A stretch of DNA of 64,000 bases from Nocardioides sp. (GTDB taxonomy: Bacteria; Actinomycetota; Actinomycetes; Propionibacteriales; Nocardioidaceae). The stretch lies in contig NZ_JBFWVK010000001.1 in assembly GCF_050246775.1 (NCBI RefSeq), positions 854,566-918,565 of the forward strand, given 5' to 3'. Under the pieces are notes generated by a model, which made no database searches, had not been told where the DNA came from, and was given only the letters and a program-made list of their open reading frames with translations. This document shows positions 7,431 to 13,673 of the stretch, piece by piece (position 1 is the stretch's first letter; the number at the start of each line of letters is the position of its first letter). Position numbers and translations under genes: made by a program.

Positions 7431-7880
7431 TCAGTCCAGGCTGCGGTTGTAGCGCGACAGGGCGGCGACGAACGCCTCGAGCTCGTCGTCGTCCCAGTCG
7501 GCCAGCTTCTCTTCGAGGTTGCTGCGCCGCTGCTCGGCCATCACGGCCAGCCGGTCCCGCCCGTGCGTCGTGACCTGCAGCAGGCTCGCCCGTCCGTCCT
7601 CGGGGTCGGGCTCGCGACCGATGAGGCCGAGGTCGACCAGGTGCTGGACGTGGCGACTGATCGCGCCCTTGTCGATCCCCAGGGAGTCCACGACGTCGGC
7701 GGAGCGGGCCGGCCCGGCGTCCCCGAGGTAGCTCAACACGAGGAAGCCGGCGATCTGGAGCTCGGGGTCGACGGCCCGGGCGCGCTCGACGATGACCCGC
7801 CGGATGCGCCGGACCATGACGCCCATCTCCTGCTCGAGGGCCTGCAGGGTCTCGACCTTGTGACTGACGGAGGTGTTCAC
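7431..7880 (-). CDS. MarR family transcriptional regulator
   Basis: wHTH pattern IDKGAISRHV..LVDLGLI.REPDPEDGRA. Confidence 0.9.
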   Translation of the reverse strand: MNTSVSHKVETLQALEQEMGVMVRRIRRVIVERARAVDPELQIAGFLVLSYLGDAGPARSADVVDSLGIDKGAISRHVQHLVDLGLIGREPDPEDGRASLLQVTTHGRDRLAVMAEQRRSNLEEKLADWDDDELEAFVAALSRYNRSLD

Positions 7881-9517
7881 CGGACCTGCCCCTGCGTCGC
7901 GGCCTCGGCCAGCTCCTGGTCACTGAGCAGGGTGGTGCGCAACGGCACCTCCTTGATCAGCAGGACGCAGACCAGGGCGACCAGGGCGAAGGGTGTCACC
8001 ACCAGGAACACGTGGCCGGTGGCGACCCCGAAGGCTTCCTCGAAGACCGCGCGGACCGGGCCCGGCAGCGTGCTGAGATCGGGGATCGAGTGGCTGCTCT
8101 GGCTGTCGACCGGCACCCCGAGGGCGGCCAGGCCGCTCGACACCTTCGCTGCGACCTGGTGGCTCAGCACCGCACCGAGCGCGGACACACCGAGGGCGCC
8201 ACCCATCGATCGGAAGAAGGCGACCAGGGCACTGGCTGACCCCATGTCTGCCTGGGCCGCGTTGTTCTGCACCGCCAGGACCAGGTTCTGCATCGTGGCC
8301 CCCAGCCCCAGTCCGAGCACGGCCATGAACAGCCCGACGACGGCCAGGTTGGTGTGGGCGTCGATGGTGCTCAGCAGCACCATGCCGACGATCACCAGCA
8401 CCATGCCGCTGACCAGGAACTTCTTCCATCGGCCGGTGTCGGAGATGATCCGCCCGGTGACGATGCTGGAGACCAGCAGGCCGCCGACCATGGCGATCGA
8501 CATCAGGCCGGCGTGGGTCGGGCTCATGCCGCGGGCGAGCTGGAAGTACTGGCTCAGGTAGACCGTGGAGCCGAACATCGACAGCCCGATCATGATCGAC
8601 GCGGCGGTCGCCAGGCTCGTCGTACGGTCCTTGAAGAGGCGCAGCGGGATGATCGGCTCGCGGGCCACGTAGCCCTCGACGTACACGGTGGCGGCGAGGA
8701 GCACGATCCCGAGCCCGACCAGTGCAGCACTGACGGGTGAGACCCACGCGAAGTCGTTGCCGGCCAGCGAGACCCAGATGAGCAGGATCGAGACGCCACT
8801 CATCAGCAGGGTGGCGCCCAGGTAGTCGATGTGCACCTCACGCCGGATCACCGGGAGGTGCAGGGTCTTCTGGAGCACCCCGAAGGCTAGTACGGCGACA
8901 GGGATGCCCACGAAGAAGCACCAGCGCCAGCCGAGGCCCGGGGTGTCCACGATCAGGCCGCCGATGAGCGGTCCGCTGACGGTGGCCAGAGCGAAGACCG
9001 CGCCGAGGTAGCCGGAGTAGCGGCCTCGCTCGCGCGGTGTCACCATGCTGGCGATGACGACCTGGACCAGGGCGGTGAGGCCGCCGACGCCGAGGCCCTG
9101 GATGGCTCGGGCGCCGATCAGCACGCCCATCGAGCTGGCGAAGCCGGCGATGAGAGAGCCGACGACATAGATCGCGAGGGCCGTCTGCACCAGGAGCTTC
9201 TTGCTGAAGAGGTCCGCGAGCTTGCCCCAGATGGGCGTGGTGGCGGTCATGGTCAGCAGGGTGGCGACGATCACCCAGGTGTAGCCGGTCTGGCTGCCGT
9301 GGAGATCGGCGACGATGCTGGGCAGCGCGTTGGACACGACGGTGCTCGACAGCATGGCGACGAAGAGGGCGAGCAGCAGCCCCGAGAGGGCCTCGAGGAT
9401 CTCGCGGTGGGACATCGGCGCCCCGAGGCTCGGTGGTGTCTGGGCGACGCCGGCTCGGGAGGTGGGCCCAGGTGTGGGCACGGTGGTGGTCACGGAACTC
9501 CAATCAGGTGGTGCCAC
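7877..9517 (-). CDS. MFS multidrug efflux permease (DHA2, 14-TM)
   Basis: LFVAMLSSTVV..ALP, WGKLADLFSKK, RAIQGLG.GG, PRERGRY.G, GPLIGG, WRWCFF; start may be ATG 9415. Confidence 0.9.
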   Translation of the reverse strand: MAPPDWSSVTTTVPTPGPTSRAGVAQTPPSLGAPMSHREILEALSGLLLALFVAMLSSTVVSNALPSIVADLHGSQTGYTWVIVATLLTMTATTPIWGKLADLFSKKLLVQTALAIYVVGSLIAGFASSMGVLIGARAIQGLGVGGLTALVQVVIASMVTPRERGRYSGYLGAVFALATVSGPLIGGLIVDTPGLGWRWCFFVGIPVAVLAFGVLQKTLHLPVIRREVHIDYLGATLLMSGVSILLIWVSLAGNDFAWVSPVSAALVGLGIVLLAATVYVEGYVAREPIIPLRLFKDRTTSLATAASIMIGLSMFGSTVYLSQYFQLARGMSPTHAGLMSIAMVGGLLVSSIVTGRIISDTGRWKKFLVSGMVLVIVGMVLLSTIDAHTNLAVVGLFMAVLGLGLGATMQNLVLAVQNNAAQADMGSASALVAFFRSMGGALGVSALGAVLSHQVAAKVSSGLAALGVPVDSQSSHSIPDLSTLPGPVRAVFEEAFGVATGHVFLVVTPFALVALVCVLLIKEVPLRTTLLSDQELAEAATQGQVR

Positions 9518-9533
9518 GAGAGTAGAACTTATT

Positions 9534-9550
9534 AGTTGTTAGTTGCAACT
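9534..9550. promoter_or_regulatory. Candidate MarR operator upstream of the MFS-marR operon
   Basis: AT-rich AGTTG-N7-CAACT containing the perfect palindrome AGTTGCAACT (9541-9550), just upstream of the MFS start. Confidence 0.5.
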
Positions 9551-9573
9551 TCTTGGTTCGCCTGAATATTCCG

Positions 9574-9602
9574 TTGCCCGCGACCGGGAAGCGTCGTACT
9601 CT
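9574..9602 (+). promoter_or_regulatory. Sigma-A type promoter for an orphan + strand transcript
   Basis: TTGCCC (9574-9579)-N17-TACTCT (9597-9602); predicted TSS about 9609. Confidence 0.6.
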
Positions 9603-9634
9603 CGAAGGACACGTGAGAGGAGGTGGTCCGTTCA

Positions 9635-9673
9635 ATGATTTCGTTGTGGACTCGTGAGGTGGCTGCCCGCTAA
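9635..9673 (+). CDS. Candidate 12-aa small ORF MISLWTREVAAR
   Basis: ATG at 9635 preceded by GGAGGT (9619-9624), TAA at 9671-9673; too short for the ORF track. Confidence 0.45.
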   Translation: MISLWTREVAAR

Positions 9674-9886
9674 GCAGCTCCACTGCCGACAGGTTCCCTG
9701 CGCAGCGTTCGTTAGCCGCTCAGCGAATTCCAGGCAGTCACCCGACCCGCAGGCGATCCGGAGTCAGTCCGCCGGATGCGTGCGCAGGTCCTCCCCGAGG
9801 AGGAAACCGCGCATCCGCCTGCGGGTCGCTCGCATTTCCCGTTGAGTCGTGCCCCGCCGACCCCGGCTGCCAGGCGGCGGAGTCAT

Positions 9887-9927
9887 CGTGGTTGATCGCA
9901 GTCACCTGGTGACTGCGATCAACCACG
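9887..9927. terminator. Perfect 20-bp inverted repeat, probable bidirectional terminator
   Basis: CGTGGTTGATCGCAGTCACC-T-GGTGACTGCGATCAACCACG, between the orphan + transcript and the end of the convergent ABC operon. Confidence 0.75.
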
Positions 9928-9957
9928 CTGTGACTGCGCGCAGCACGGCGGCCGGGG

Positions 9958-11943
9958 TCAGGCGACAGCGGCAGCGGTGAACTGCGCGTTGTACAAGCGG
10001 GCGTAGGCGCCTCCCGCAGCCAGCAGCGAGTCGTGGGTGCCCTGCTCCACGATGGCCCCGGACTCCATGACCAGGATCAGGTCCGCGTCGCGGATGGTCG
10101 AGAGCCGGTGAGCGATGACGAAGGACGTCCGGTCGGTGCGCAGTGCCGCCATCGCATGCTGCAACAGCAACTCGGTGCGGGTGTCCACCGAGGACGTCGC
10201 CTCATCGAGGATCAGCAGCGCGGGGTCGCTGAGGAAGGCGCGTGCGATCGTGATCAGCTGCCGCTCCCCCGCACTGATGTTGCCGCCCTCCTCATCGATC
10301 ACCGTGTCGTAGCCCTCGGGCAGCGAGTGCACGAACCGGTCCACGAAGGTCGCCCGGGCAGCCTCCATGATCTGCTCCTCGCTCGCCCCTGGCGCGCCAT
10401 ACGCGATGTTGTCGCGAATGGTGCCCTCGAACAGCCAGGTGTCCTGCAGCACCATGCCGATCTGGCCGCGCAGCTCCGAGCGGGGCATCGCCGAGATGTC
10501 CGTCCCGTCGAGCGTGATCCGCCCGCCATCGAGCTCGTAGAAGCGCATGACCAGGTTGACCAAGGTGGTCTTGCCCGCCCCGGTCGGTCCGACGATCGCC
10601 ACGGTCTGGCCAGGGCTGGCCACCAGCGACAGGTCCTGGATCAGGGGTACGTCGGGCTCGTAGCTGAAGGCGACATGCTCGAACGCCACCCGCCCCTCGC
10701 GCCGCGCAGGTTTCGTCATGGACACCGGAGCACGCTCGGTGACCACCGAGCCGACCTCCTCCTCGGCGTCGAGCAGCTCGAAGACGCGCTCGGCGGAGGC
10801 GACCCCCGACTGGAGCAGGTTGGCCATCGACGCCACCTGGGTCAGCGGCTGGGTGAACTGTCGGGTGTACTGGATGAAGGCCTGGACGTCGCCGAGGCTC
10901 ATCGTGCCGCTGGCCACGCGCAGCCCGCCGAGGACGGCGATCACGACGTAGTTGAGGTTCCCGATGAACATCATGATCGGCATGATCAGCCCGGACACGA
11001 ACTGGGCACCGAAGGACGCCTGGTAGAGCTCGTCGTTCTCCGTCGCGAAGACCTCCTCGACCTCGCGCTGGCGTCCGAACACCTTGACCAGGCTGTGGCC
11101 GGAGAACGACTCCTCGATGTGGCCGTTGAGCGTGCCGGTGCGGCGCCACTGGGAGACGAACAGGCCCTGGGACCGCTTCATCACCTGGCTCGCCACAACC
11201 ATGGTGATCGGCACCGACACGAGGGCGACGAGCGCCAGCGTGGGGCTGATCCAGATCATCATGCCCAGCACCGCGACCACGGTCAGCAGTGAGGTGAGCA
11301 ACTGGCTCATGGTCTGCTGCAGGGACTGGCTGATGTTGTCGATGTCGTTGGTGACCCGCGAGAGCAGCTCACCACGCGGCTGACGGTCGAAGTAGCCCAG
11401 GGGCAGCCGGTTGATCTTGTCCTCGACCTCTGAGCGCATCCGGAACACCGTGCCCTGCACGACGTCGTTGAGCAGGTAGCCCTGCAGCCACGCCAGGAGC
11501 GAGGCCACCACGTAGACCGCCAGCACCAGAAGCAGGACCGACCCGAGCGCCCCGAAGTCCACCCCCTGACCCGGCACGAAGTCGATGTTGGACAGCAGGT
11601 CGGCCCGGGAGTCGTCACCGTCGGCGCGTAGCCCGGCGATGGCCTGCTCCTTGGAGACCCCGTCAGGGATGTTGGAGCCGATGAAGCCGGCGAAGATGAG
11701 GTTGGTGGCGTGCCCCAGGATCTTCGGTCCGAACGACGTCAGCACGACCGAGACGATGGCGAGGGCCACGACGGCCATGGCTTTGTAACGCTCCGGCGCC
11801 ATCCGGGCGACGAGCCGCTTGGCCGAGGGCCCGAAGCTCATCGCCTTCTGCGCGACCATGCCGCCGCCGAACGGACCTCGCCCGGGCCCGGGGCCGCTCT
11901 GGATGCGCTCGGTCTGCTTGAGCTGTCCGCTGGTCGAGCTCAT
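9958..11943 (-). CDS. ABC exporter fused TMD-NBD subunit (heterodimer partner 2)
   Basis: GPTGAGKTT, signature ISAGERQ, ILDEATSSVD, FVIAHRLSTI. Confidence 0.93.
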   Translation of the reverse strand: MSSTSGQLKQTERIQSGPGPGRGPFGGGMVAQKAMSFGPSAKRLVARMAPERYKAMAVVALAIVSVVLTSFGPKILGHATNLIFAGFIGSNIPDGVSKEQAIAGLRADGDDSRADLLSNIDFVPGQGVDFGALGSVLLLVLAVYVVASLLAWLQGYLLNDVVQGTVFRMRSEVEDKINRLPLGYFDRQPRGELLSRVTNDIDNISQSLQQTMSQLLTSLLTVVAVLGMMIWISPTLALVALVSVPITMVVASQVMKRSQGLFVSQWRRTGTLNGHIEESFSGHSLVKVFGRQREVEEVFATENDELYQASFGAQFVSGLIMPIMMFIGNLNYVVIAVLGGLRVASGTMSLGDVQAFIQYTRQFTQPLTQVASMANLLQSGVASAERVFELLDAEEEVGSVVTERAPVSMTKPARREGRVAFEHVAFSYEPDVPLIQDLSLVASPGQTVAIVGPTGAGKTTLVNLVMRFYELDGGRITLDGTDISAMPRSELRGQIGMVLQDTWLFEGTIRDNIAYGAPGASEEQIMEAARATFVDRFVHSLPEGYDTVIDEEGGNISAGERQLITIARAFLSDPALLILDEATSSVDTRTELLLQHAMAALRTDRTSFVIAHRLSTIRDADLILVMESGAIVEQGTHDSLLAAGGAYARLYNAQFTAAAVA

Positions 11944-13673
11944 GCCGCGGCCTCCGCACTCTGCTGGGACGCCACGATCTCCTGGTACGTCGGATTGCCG
12001 GCCAGGAGATCGTCATGCGTGCCGCGCCCGACAACGACGCCGTCCTCCAGGACCAGGATCAGGTCGGCGTCGCGGATGGTGGACACTCGCTGCGCCACGA
12101 TCACGACCGTCGAGTCCCGGGTGACCGGTTTCAAGGCTGCCCGCAGCCGCGAGTCGGTGGCCAGGTCGAGCGCCGAGAACGAGTCGTCGAAGAGGTAGAT
12201 CCCCGGCTTGCGGATCAGCGCCCGGGCGATGGCCAGGCGCTGGCGCTGACCTCCCGAGAAGTTGGTCCCGCCCTGCGCGACCGGTGCGTCGAGCCCTTCG
12301 GCGAGGGTGGCCACGAAGTCCTTGGCCTGGGCCACTTCGAGGGCCTCCCACATCTCCTGTTCGCTGGCGTGTGGCTTGCCGTAGGCCAGGTTGCTGCGGA
12401 TCGTCCCGCTGAACAGGAACGCCCGCTGAGGCACCAGCCCGATGCTGCCCCACAGGACATCCGGGTCCAGGGCGCGCACATCGACCCCGCCCACCCTCAC
12501 CACGCCGCTGGTCGCGTCGAACAGCCGGGGCACCAGGTTGACCAGGGTGGACTTTCCTGAGCCGGTGGAACCGATGACCGCCACCGTCTGTCCCGGGGTG
12601 GCCTGGAAGCTGATCTGGTGGAGCACGGGGGCCTCGGCGCCGGGGTAGGCGTAGTCGACCTCGTCGAGCTCCAGGGTGCCGTGGCTCCTGAGCTCGGTCA
12701 CCGGCTCCAGCGGCGGGGGGACCGACGACTCCGTCTGGAGGACCTCCATGATCCGATCGGCGCTGACGGCCGACCGCGGGATCATCATCAACATGAAGGT
12801 CGACATCATCACGGCCATCATGATCTGCATCAGGTAGGACAGGAACGCCGTGAGGGCCCCGACCTGCATCTGGCCGCTGTCGACCCGGTGGCCGCCGAAC
12901 CAGAGCACCGCGATGCCGGCCACGTTCACCACCAGCATCACCGCGGGGAACATGGTGGCCAGCCAGCGACCGGTCCTGGTCGCGACCACGGTGAGGTCGT
13001 CGTTGGCAGTCGCGAAGCGGGCGGTCTCGTGCGGTTCACGGACGAAGGCCCGCACGACCCGGATGCCGGTGATCTGCTCGCGCAGCACCCGGTTGACCTC
13101 GTCGACCCGGGTCTGCATCAGACGGAAGCCGGGCACCATCTGGCGCACGATGAGCCCCACGACCAGGAAGAGCACCGGGACCAACACGGCCAGCAGCCAC
13201 GACAGGCCCAGGTCCTCACGCATGGCCATGACGATGCCGCCGATCATCATGATCGGTGCCGCGATCATCATGGTGCAGGTCATCAGCACCAGCATCTGCA
13301 CCTGCTGGACGTCGTTGGTGTTGCGGGTGATCAGGCTGGGCGCGCCGAACTGCTGGAGCTCGCGTTGGGAGAAGGAGCCGACGCGGTGGAACAGGTCTCG
13401 GCGTACGTCGCGGCCGAACGCCATCGCCGTGCGGGCACCGAACCACACAGCAGCCACCGAGCACCCGATCTGGACCAGGGAGATGGCGAGCATGATCGCA
13501 CCGAGCCGGATGATCTCGCCGGTGTCTCCCTGGGCCACCCCGTTGTCGATGATGTCGGCGTTGAGGCTGGGTAGGTAAAGCACCGCCGCGGTGCCCACGA
13601 ACTGGAGGGCGACGACGGCGGCGAGCCAGGCCTTGTACGGCGCCAGCGAGGCGCGGAGCAACGTGATCAACAT
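11940..13673 (-). CDS. ABC exporter fused TMD-NBD subunit (heterodimer partner 1, degenerate site)
   Basis: GSTGSGKST, FSGGQRQR, degenerate Walker B LFDDSFSALD and switch VAQR, typical of TM287/TM288-like heterodimers. Confidence 0.93.
   Translation of the reverse strand: MLITLLRASLAPYKAWLAAVVALQFVGTAAVLYLPSLNADIIDNGVAQGDTGEIIRLGAIMLAISLVQIGCSVAAVWFGARTAMAFGRDVRRDLFHRVGSFSQRELQQFGAPSLITRNTNDVQQVQMLVLMTCTMMIAAPIMMIGGIVMAMREDLGLSWLLAVLVPVLFLVVGLIVRQMVPGFRLMQTRVDEVNRVLREQITGIRVVRAFVREPHETARFATANDDLTVVATRTGRWLATMFPAVMLVVNVAGIAVLWFGGHRVDSGQMQVGALTAFLSYLMQIMMAVMMSTFMLMMIPRSAVSADRIMEVLQTESSVPPPLEPVTELRSHGTLELDEVDYAYPGAEAPVLHQISFQATPGQTVAVIGSTGSGKSTLVNLVPRLFDATSGVVRVGGVDVRALDPDVLWGSIGLVPQRAFLFSGTIRSNLAYGKPHASEQEMWEALEVAQAKDFVATLAEGLDAPVAQGGTNFSGGQRQRLAIARALIRKPGIYLFDDSFSALDLATDSRLRAALKPVTRDSTVVIVAQRVSTIRDADLILVLEDGVVVGRGTHDDLLAGNPTYQEIVASQQSAEAAA

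Follow-up and report, generated by a model that had tools for sequence, protein, structure and literature searches.

Ms_IGR-5 is an actinobacterial sRNA that was first reported from Mycobacterium smegmatis. Its family, catalogued as RF02471 in Rfam, is characterized by a 5′ GGAGGUGGUCC motif, a mini-ORF, a second hairpin, a GCAGUCACC linker and a terminal GC-rich stem with an inner CCGG-type hairpin, and its genes are single-copy and intergenic; all of these traits are shared by the RNA described here. Ms_IGR-5 is expressed as a discrete sRNA in Streptomyces lividans, as judged by RNA-seq (PMC8079986), forms an sRNA transcription unit in Streptomyces avermitilis (PMC8780764) and bears ribosome footprints in both Mycobacterium abscessus and M. 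smegmatis (PMC4974804). A full-text literature search for Ms_IGR-5 and RF02471 returned no functional study.

With regard to design rather than sequence, the rreB and rreR RNAs of Alphaproteobacteria, small mRNAs named for ‘ribosome-regulated expression’, offer a comparison (Hahn et al., RNA Biol 2016/17, PMC5711450). Like the RNA analysed here, they are stand-alone transcripts of about 165–230 nt, in which an extended Shine-Dalgarno (SD) sequence, complementary to about 16–17 nt of the 16S rRNA 3′ tail, is combined with a tiny ORF (14–18 aa in the rre RNAs, 12 here) whose peptide seems to be unimportant. rreB binds 30S subunits and is poorly translated owing to its extended SD, and loss of its start codon results in a more stable RNA (PMC5711450).

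The present locus lies in a 64,000-nucleotide stretch of the genome of a Nocardioides species (contig NZ_JBFWVK010000001.1, positions 854,566 to 918,565 of the forward strand), hereafter called the window, in which all positions are counted. An earlier note, made from the letters of the window, had singled out positions 9743–9828 as a multibranch RNA domain downstream of a micro-ORF and had read it as a three-way junction with either a conformational switch or a seed for pairing in trans. The sequences and coordinates that it listed are all present where it placed them, and the micro-ORF is real and conserved. The sequences given for the second hairpin are right as well, the one slip being that T9789 was counted twice, in ‘GGT’ and again in ‘TCCTCC’. 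What the note overlooked is the membership of the domain in a catalogued RNA family.

A scan of positions 9400–10050 against Rfam returned a match to RF02471 that is untruncated (model positions 1–184 of 184) and scores 99.3 bits, the gathering score of the family being 45 bits, and a covariance-model search of the whole genome matched the family once, with the same result (Table 1). Otherwise, the Rfam scan yielded spurious miRNA-type matches only, all of them on a neighbouring long palindrome and far below the cut-offs. The flagged element aligns with the terminal stem of the model, i.e. at model positions 133–179, where a GC-rich stem surrounds a CCGG-type hairpin and follows the GCAGUCACC linker, which is nearly invariant in the alignment of homologues described below. 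Both 5′ hallmarks of the family are present too, namely GGAGGUG(G/A)UCC at 9619–9629 and, in the region of the mini-ORF, GUGAGGUGGCUGC at 9654–9666. The flagged junction is not a new element but constitutes the 3′ domain of the one Ms_IGR-5 copy in this genome. Of 41 relatives (apparently Nocardioides), 40 likewise have a single copy of Ms_IGR-5, which was also matched in 114 of the 151 genomes of an evenly drawn sample of the class, or about three quarters. In a BLAST search of the 4.94-Mb genome, the sole match of the 86-nt element was the element itself. Coding by the overlapping ORFs at 9654–9845 (plus strand) and 9738–9926 (minus strand) was considered and rejected, with no Pfam family matched.

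Table 1. Features of the Ms_IGR-5 locus, in coordinates of the window
Feature	Position	Strand	Details
Putative sRNA promoter	9574–9602	+	-35 TTGCCC 9574–9579, 17-nt spacer, -10 TACTCT 9597–9602
Ms_IGR-5 small RNA, full length (Rfam RF02471)	9609–9834	+	cmscan 99.3 bits, E 4.3e-23
Extended SD	9615–9630	+	16 contiguous pairs with own 16S rRNA 3′ tail (13 Watson-Crick, 3 G.U)
12-codon mini-ORF MISLWTREVAAR	9635–9673	+	ATG 9635, TAA 9671–9673
PK1, 5′ strand GGACU	9648–9652	+	ORF codons 5–6; candidate pairing with AGUCC 9766–9770
H1, 5′ strand GGUGGCUGCC	9658–9667	+	ORF codons 8–11; pairs with 9733–9742
P2, variable hairpin inside H1	9668–9725	+	in minimum-energy fold; corresponds to second hairpin of the Rfam model; base contains stop codon
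H1, 3′ strand GGCAGUCACC	9733–9742	+	abuts outer stem P3 without spacer
Outer stem P3	9743–9755 / 9816–9828	+	13 perfect bp
Hairpin 1 (P3a)	9756–9777	+	stem AUCCGG/CCGGAU 9756–9761 / 9772–9777, loop 9762–9771 with AGUCC 9766–9770
Alternative pairing	GATGCG 9775–9780 : CGCATC 9810–9815	+	six-base complementarity
Hairpin 2 (P3b)	9780–9814	+	upper stem UCCUCC 9789–9794 : GGAGGA 9799–9804
Pyrimidine-rich, T-enriched tail CUCGCAUUUCCC	9829–9840	+	probable transcript end

Upstream of a conserved ACAC start, the 127 aligned homologues share an A-rich patch, TTG at about -36 to -34 and TAC..T at about -13 to -7. Since a scan of the sRNA upstream region for sigma-70 consensus promoters found no match, the assignment of the putative promoter rests on this conservation. 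The extended SD that follows was delimited by comparing positions 9615–9630 by hand with the 3′ end of the 16S rRNA of the same genome (...GGCUGGAUCACCUCCUUUCU), and its partners are the last 17 nt of that rRNA without the terminal U. Pairing of 16 nt or more with the 16S 3′ end, placed immediately before a small ORF, is a mark of rre-type RNAs that is thus present here. Among the 139 loci collected, 138 preserve the GGAGGUG(G/A)UCC core of the extended SD. The mini-ORF begins five nucleotides after the extended SD and is in frame in 125 of 127 homologues (12 codons in 120, 13 codons in five), with indels occurring in threes; its start codon is ATG in 73 homologues, TTG in 46 and GTG in seven. 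Residues 2–5 of the peptide are not conserved, codon 5 being NGG and thus specifying W, R or G. Because the frame is kept while these residues vary, translation or ribosome loading seems to matter more than the peptide itself.

At the other end of the unit, termination has to be considered. Terminators that consist of a stem and an imperfect tail are typical of high-GC actinobacteria, and such intrinsic terminators with imperfect U-tracts have in common with the present RNA a GC-rich stem at the end of the unit followed by a short T-enriched tail. They differ from it in that the two hairpins inside P3, at about 60 nt, go far beyond the loop of a terminator, and a scan of the 3′ end for canonical terminators (at least five T in 8 nt, short loop) found nothing. 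Given this empty scan, the tail was deduced from conservation: across the 127 homologues, T accounts for 0.33 of the 12 nt after P3, compared with 0.14 further downstream, and conservation stops there. TTT occurs within these 12 nt in 43 of the 127 homologues, including the present one (CAUUUCC). P3 and the T-enriched tail would thus probably serve as terminator and 3′-protective stem.

No gene on the same strand follows the sRNA, the next gene (9958–11943) being encoded on the minus strand. The RNA is flanked by a divergent MFS transporter gene and a convergent pair of ABC exporter genes, whereas most species of the genus have ABC, sRNA and MFS in this order, all co-directional. Comparison over positions 7877–13673 (loci L001, L012 and L019 versus L004–L024) showed that in this genome, as well as in L019 and L012, only the sRNA is reversed, the ABC and MFS genes on its two sides being the same. 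Outside the genus, its neighbours differ. Since the unit is inverted between the same neighbours, has other neighbours outside the genus and precedes no same-strand gene, this comparison identifies it as an autonomous gene that spans about 226 nt and has a promoter of its own, and not as a leader.

Two features of the surrounding sequence deserve mention in their own right. An AT-rich stretch at 9525–9560, which lies between the sRNA promoter and the MFS gene (minus strand, starting at about 9493), contains operator-like repeats (AGTTGTTAGTTGCAACT), and relatives carry repeats of the GTTGnnnnnnCAAC type before the orthologous MFS gene, which suggests a TetR- or MarR-type operator of the transporter. 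On the opposite side, between the sRNA and the stop codon of the convergent ABC gene, positions 9859–9959 fold into a roughly 100-nt hairpin (-87.2 kcal/mol, z -7.9). Its core at 9887–9927, a perfect 20+20-nt palindrome, is dispersed over about eight further loci in the genome with 90–100% identity over 37–48 nt, so that the hairpin is probably a REP-like element and bidirectional terminator; its presence explains the spurious sub-threshold miRNA matches in the Rfam scan. Additionally, the 9-mer GCAGTCACC, which belongs to the 3′ strand of H1, occurs three times in the 64-kb window (9734–9742, 9898–9906 and 9908–9916; about 1.06 expected by chance), with one copy in the sRNA and one in each arm of the neighbouring palindrome. 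This may be a coincidence or the trace of a local rearrangement.

Turning to the 3′ domain itself, the three-way junction of P3, P3a and P3b is exactly what RNAfold returns for positions 9743–9828, both as the minimum-energy and as the centroid structure, in agreement with the arrangement drawn in the earlier note, which had named this calculation as a check. The fold has an energy of -56.8 kcal/mol, compared with a mean of -34.8 kcal/mol (sd 3.4) for shuffled sequences (z -6.5), and none of 200 shuffles was as stable. The complementary strand folds comparably well, at -58.1 kcal/mol. As energy alone therefore cannot assign the strand, the assignment made here is based on the covariance-model match, the promoter and the ORF. 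The consensus of RF02471, which derives from mycobacterial seeds, depicts this domain as a simple stem with one inner hairpin, whereas here and in 108 of 127 homologues the extra arm P3b converts it into a three-way junction; relative to the mycobacterial consensus, the present RNA has about 50 extra nucleotides inside the terminal stem.

Comparison among homologues made it possible to ask which helices of the domain are maintained, covariation having been set beforehand as a test in the earlier note. From the 139 loci collected, an alignment of 127 sequences (A1) was obtained; the automatic outer-stem finder had mis-assigned seven loci, and four more were dropped for implausible lengths. Over the whole structure, 91.0% of the cells of A1 are paired, as opposed to 81.8% in shuffles, none of which (0 of 500) reached the observed value, and pairing drops to 36–46% when partners are slid. 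The helices of the domain do covary. P3 is paired in 92.3% of cells and has double-sided changes in 11 of its 13 pairs, and in 124 of 127 homologues the GUCC of P3a is flanked by a stem of at least 4 bp for which 78 distinct 5′ strands were counted, while the loop always carries (N)GUCC. By these measures, P3 and P3a are both family-wide features that compensatory changes preserve.

The alignment further supports a helix that connects the mini-ORF to the base of the 3′ domain. This helix, H1, has 95.0% of its cells paired, shows changes on both sides in five of its 10 pairs and is also part of the full-length minimum-energy fold. In the Rfam consensus structure, the bases of its 3′ strand are left unpaired, and those of its 5′ strand are contested by the Rfam helix P1 (9622–9627 with 9662–9667), which competes with H1 for the same bases. 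P1 is compatible with A1 but finds no covariation support there, with one double-change cell in 762 and a result no better than that of shuffles. The P2 hairpin enclosed by H1 varies widely in length and sequence across A1. Several unrelated lineages (e.g. L014, L021, L025, L027, L036–L039, L058 and L076) carry GAUCACCGG inside this variable hairpin, a sequence that is absent here. It matches a part of the 16S 3′ tail exactly, is the complement of the GGUG(A/G)UC that lies beside the SD in the same RNA and could represent an internal anti-SD mimic.

The conserved GUCC in the loop of P3a has a candidate partner in GGAC of the mini-ORF, and the resulting pseudoknot, PK1, is paired in 95.4% of the cells of its five base pairs in A1. 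At pair 4, 118 sequences have C:G and nine have U:A, none of the 127 being unpaired, and one sequence contains a compensated GAAC/GUUC variant. Pair 5 is G:C in 56 sequences, U:A in 22, A:U in nine and U:G in 11, and it is mismatched in the remaining 29 of 127, among them whole families (f38, f21 and f17). Anchor-based counts, obtained independently of the alignment, agree with A1 for both PK1 and H1. The covariation counts are inflated by relatedness: for PK1, on a tree from which the tested columns were left out, the exchange of C:G for U:A in the core corresponds to about four changes, and restriction to supported branches leaves two independent contrasts, both in the same direction. Tree-aware sign tests of pair 5 were underpowered and not significant. 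A permutation test of the ‘longest complementarity’ gave a weak result (5.42 vs 5.26, z about 2.4) because the invariant GGAC/GUCC core survives permutation, and it was replaced by the position-specific counts given above. PK1 also has a competitor, in that GGAC can pair locally with GGUCC beside the SD. This is the hairpin chosen by the full-length minimum-energy fold; it is compatible with the alignment and weakly supported, with no support from covariation. Taken as a comparative prediction, the pairing of the P3a-loop GUCC with the GGAC of the ORF is well supported, though not proven.

The explanation that best accounts for the locus as a whole, and that we regard as probably correct, is that the flagged domain is the 3′ domain of Ms_IGR-5, combining the P3a-loop/ORF pseudoknot, H1 and a variable P3b into the scaffold of a ribosome-docking mini-mRNA. 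It competes with the two functions that the earlier note had envisaged for the junction. According to one of them, the UCCUCC of hairpin 2 would be a seed that acts in trans as an anti-SD mimic on the ribosome-binding sites of other mRNAs, or else its GGAGGA would titrate ribosomes. Stems of CCUC or CUCC with GAGG or GGAG occur in the P3b of 26 of 108 homologues, while 5.7 would be expected from shuffles, which makes selection for composition possible; P3b may not be fully neutral in this respect. Nonetheless, UCCUCC is fully paired here and buried in its stem (pair probability 0.95–0.97), and the motif is absent from about three quarters of the homologues. Moreover, the nearest relatives exchange UCCUCC/GGAGGA for UCCUUC/GAAGGA, UCCCC/GGGGA or UCCCUCC/GGUGGGA, with compensatory replacement of the basal stem as well; since both strands change together, the segment behaves as a structural stem and not as a seed. 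A segment of P3b length is found in 108 of 127 homologues and differs among them in length and sequence, and 19 of 127 have no such arm, as is the case in mycobacteria-like and some other lineages, the former of which possess an unpaired purine-rich hinge instead. An exact search for the P3b sequence of this genome in 185,579 species genomes gave no match. A seed in hairpin 2 is very unlikely, and P3b is, as far as its behaviour among homologues tells, a variable structural arm. The same fate befell the other function, a switch in which the junction would toggle between the inner hairpins and an extended rod held together by GAUGCG:CGCAUC. The six-base complementarity is real and excludes bases of both inner stems. 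Yet the best structure that contains it reaches -54.8 kcal/mol, 2.0 kcal/mol short of the -56.8 kcal/mol of the minimum-energy fold, its pair probability is about 0.02, compared with 0.91–0.98 for the pairs of P3a and P3b, and the helix is not conserved: the nearest relatives (L142, L143, L144/L019 and L059) keep GAUGCG or GAGGCG on one side and have GUGCAC or CGCGCC, and hence no complementary partner, on the other. Such a switch must be considered very unlikely indeed.

A further proposal is that the domain is a plain intrinsic terminator hairpin with lineage-specific decorations and that the complementarity between its loop and the ORF is coincidental. A GC-rich stem of 13 bp at the 3′ end of the unit, followed by a T-enriched tail, is what such a terminator would look like, and the lack of power in the tree-aware tests of PK1 is in its favour, too. 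What it does not need is an inner hairpin that is kept universally together with an invariant GUCC motif in its loop, nor does it predict the exception-free change from C:G to U:A in concert with the ORF (nine of nine sequences), which leaves it improbable. Alternatively, a micro-ORF that is followed by a terminator-like stem resembles an attenuator, and in most species of the genus the unit is indeed located upstream of and co-directional with the MFS gene, so that it might act in cis as a leader or attenuator of the neighbouring transporter gene. Here, however, the next downstream gene is convergent and the MFS gene divergent, the latter having an operator-like and promoter region of its own, and both the inversion of the unit relative to the same neighbours in different species and its other neighbours outside the genus speak against a cis-acting role, which is extremely unlikely. 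Least of all can the domain be a REP or MITE-like dispersed palindromic repeat. Palindromes of the REP type do exist in this genome, including the one at 9887–9927 just 60 nt downstream, and many dispersed copies had been named in the earlier note as the observation that would speak for such a repeat; the domain proved to be single-copy, its one BLAST match being itself and the covariance model finding one copy per genome in relatives, and this copy number refutes the idea.

With the 3′ domain of Ms_IGR-5 read as a scaffold that probably also acts as terminator in a ribosome-docking mini-mRNA, an interpretation that draws on the rre RNAs, a tentative order of events can be proposed. H1 ends where P3 begins, so the two helices can stack. 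P3a would fold back along P3, allowing its loop to reach the GGACU located 5 nt upstream of H1, and the junction angle required for this reach would be set by P3b or, in lineages without this arm, by the unpaired hinge. PK1 and H1 would thereby lock codons 5–12, while the extended SD and the start codon, which lie outside the covarying helices, would stay free. A 30S subunit that docks via the 16-nt SD–anti-SD duplex would then either remain parked or stalled, or need to unwind PK1 and H1. In this manner, ribosome loading would be coupled to the conformation and stability of the RNA, as reported for the rre mini-mRNAs. The proposed mechanism is consistent with the ribosome footprints in mycobacteria, with the expression of the sRNA in Streptomyces and with the design of rreB.

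The limits of this comparison follow from the systems themselves. rreB and rreR belong to another phylum than Nocardioides, a member of the Actinomycetota, and are likened to the present RNA by design and not by sequence. The three-way junction and the loop–ORF pseudoknot are features of Ms_IGR-5, whereas 30S binding is a demonstrated property of rreB only. Ms_IGR-5 would therefore be at most an analogue of the rre RNAs.

As an ordinary component of an sRNA already catalogued, the flagged element is no discovery in itself. Its value lies in the structural detail that it adds to a widespread single-copy RNA, for which it yields a better-supported model of secondary and tertiary structure. The results suggest that the RF02471 consensus should be revised by adding H1 and the pseudoknot between the P3a loop and the ORF and by replacing the unsupported P1. 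They also suggest that hairpin 1 with its GUCC loop is the part of the 3′ domain that is conserved across the family, the eye-catching SD/anti-SD hairpin having been shown to be a variable arm.

A bolder extension, which we offer as speculation and think rather unlikely, is that the 3′ domain constitutes the lock of a ribosome-sensing device, with PK1 and H1 shutting codons 5–12 while the extended SD captures the 30S subunit. Ms_IGR-5 would then monitor or modulate translational capacity class-wide in Actinomycetota, in convergence with the rre RNAs. Were this true, opening of the lock would decide between sequestration of the ribosome, degradation of the RNA and exposure of GCAGUCACC and GUCC to other partners. 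Beyond this possibility, the findings on H1, PK1 and P3b provide concrete targets for the study of ribosome-docking mini-mRNAs in mycobacteria or streptomycetes.
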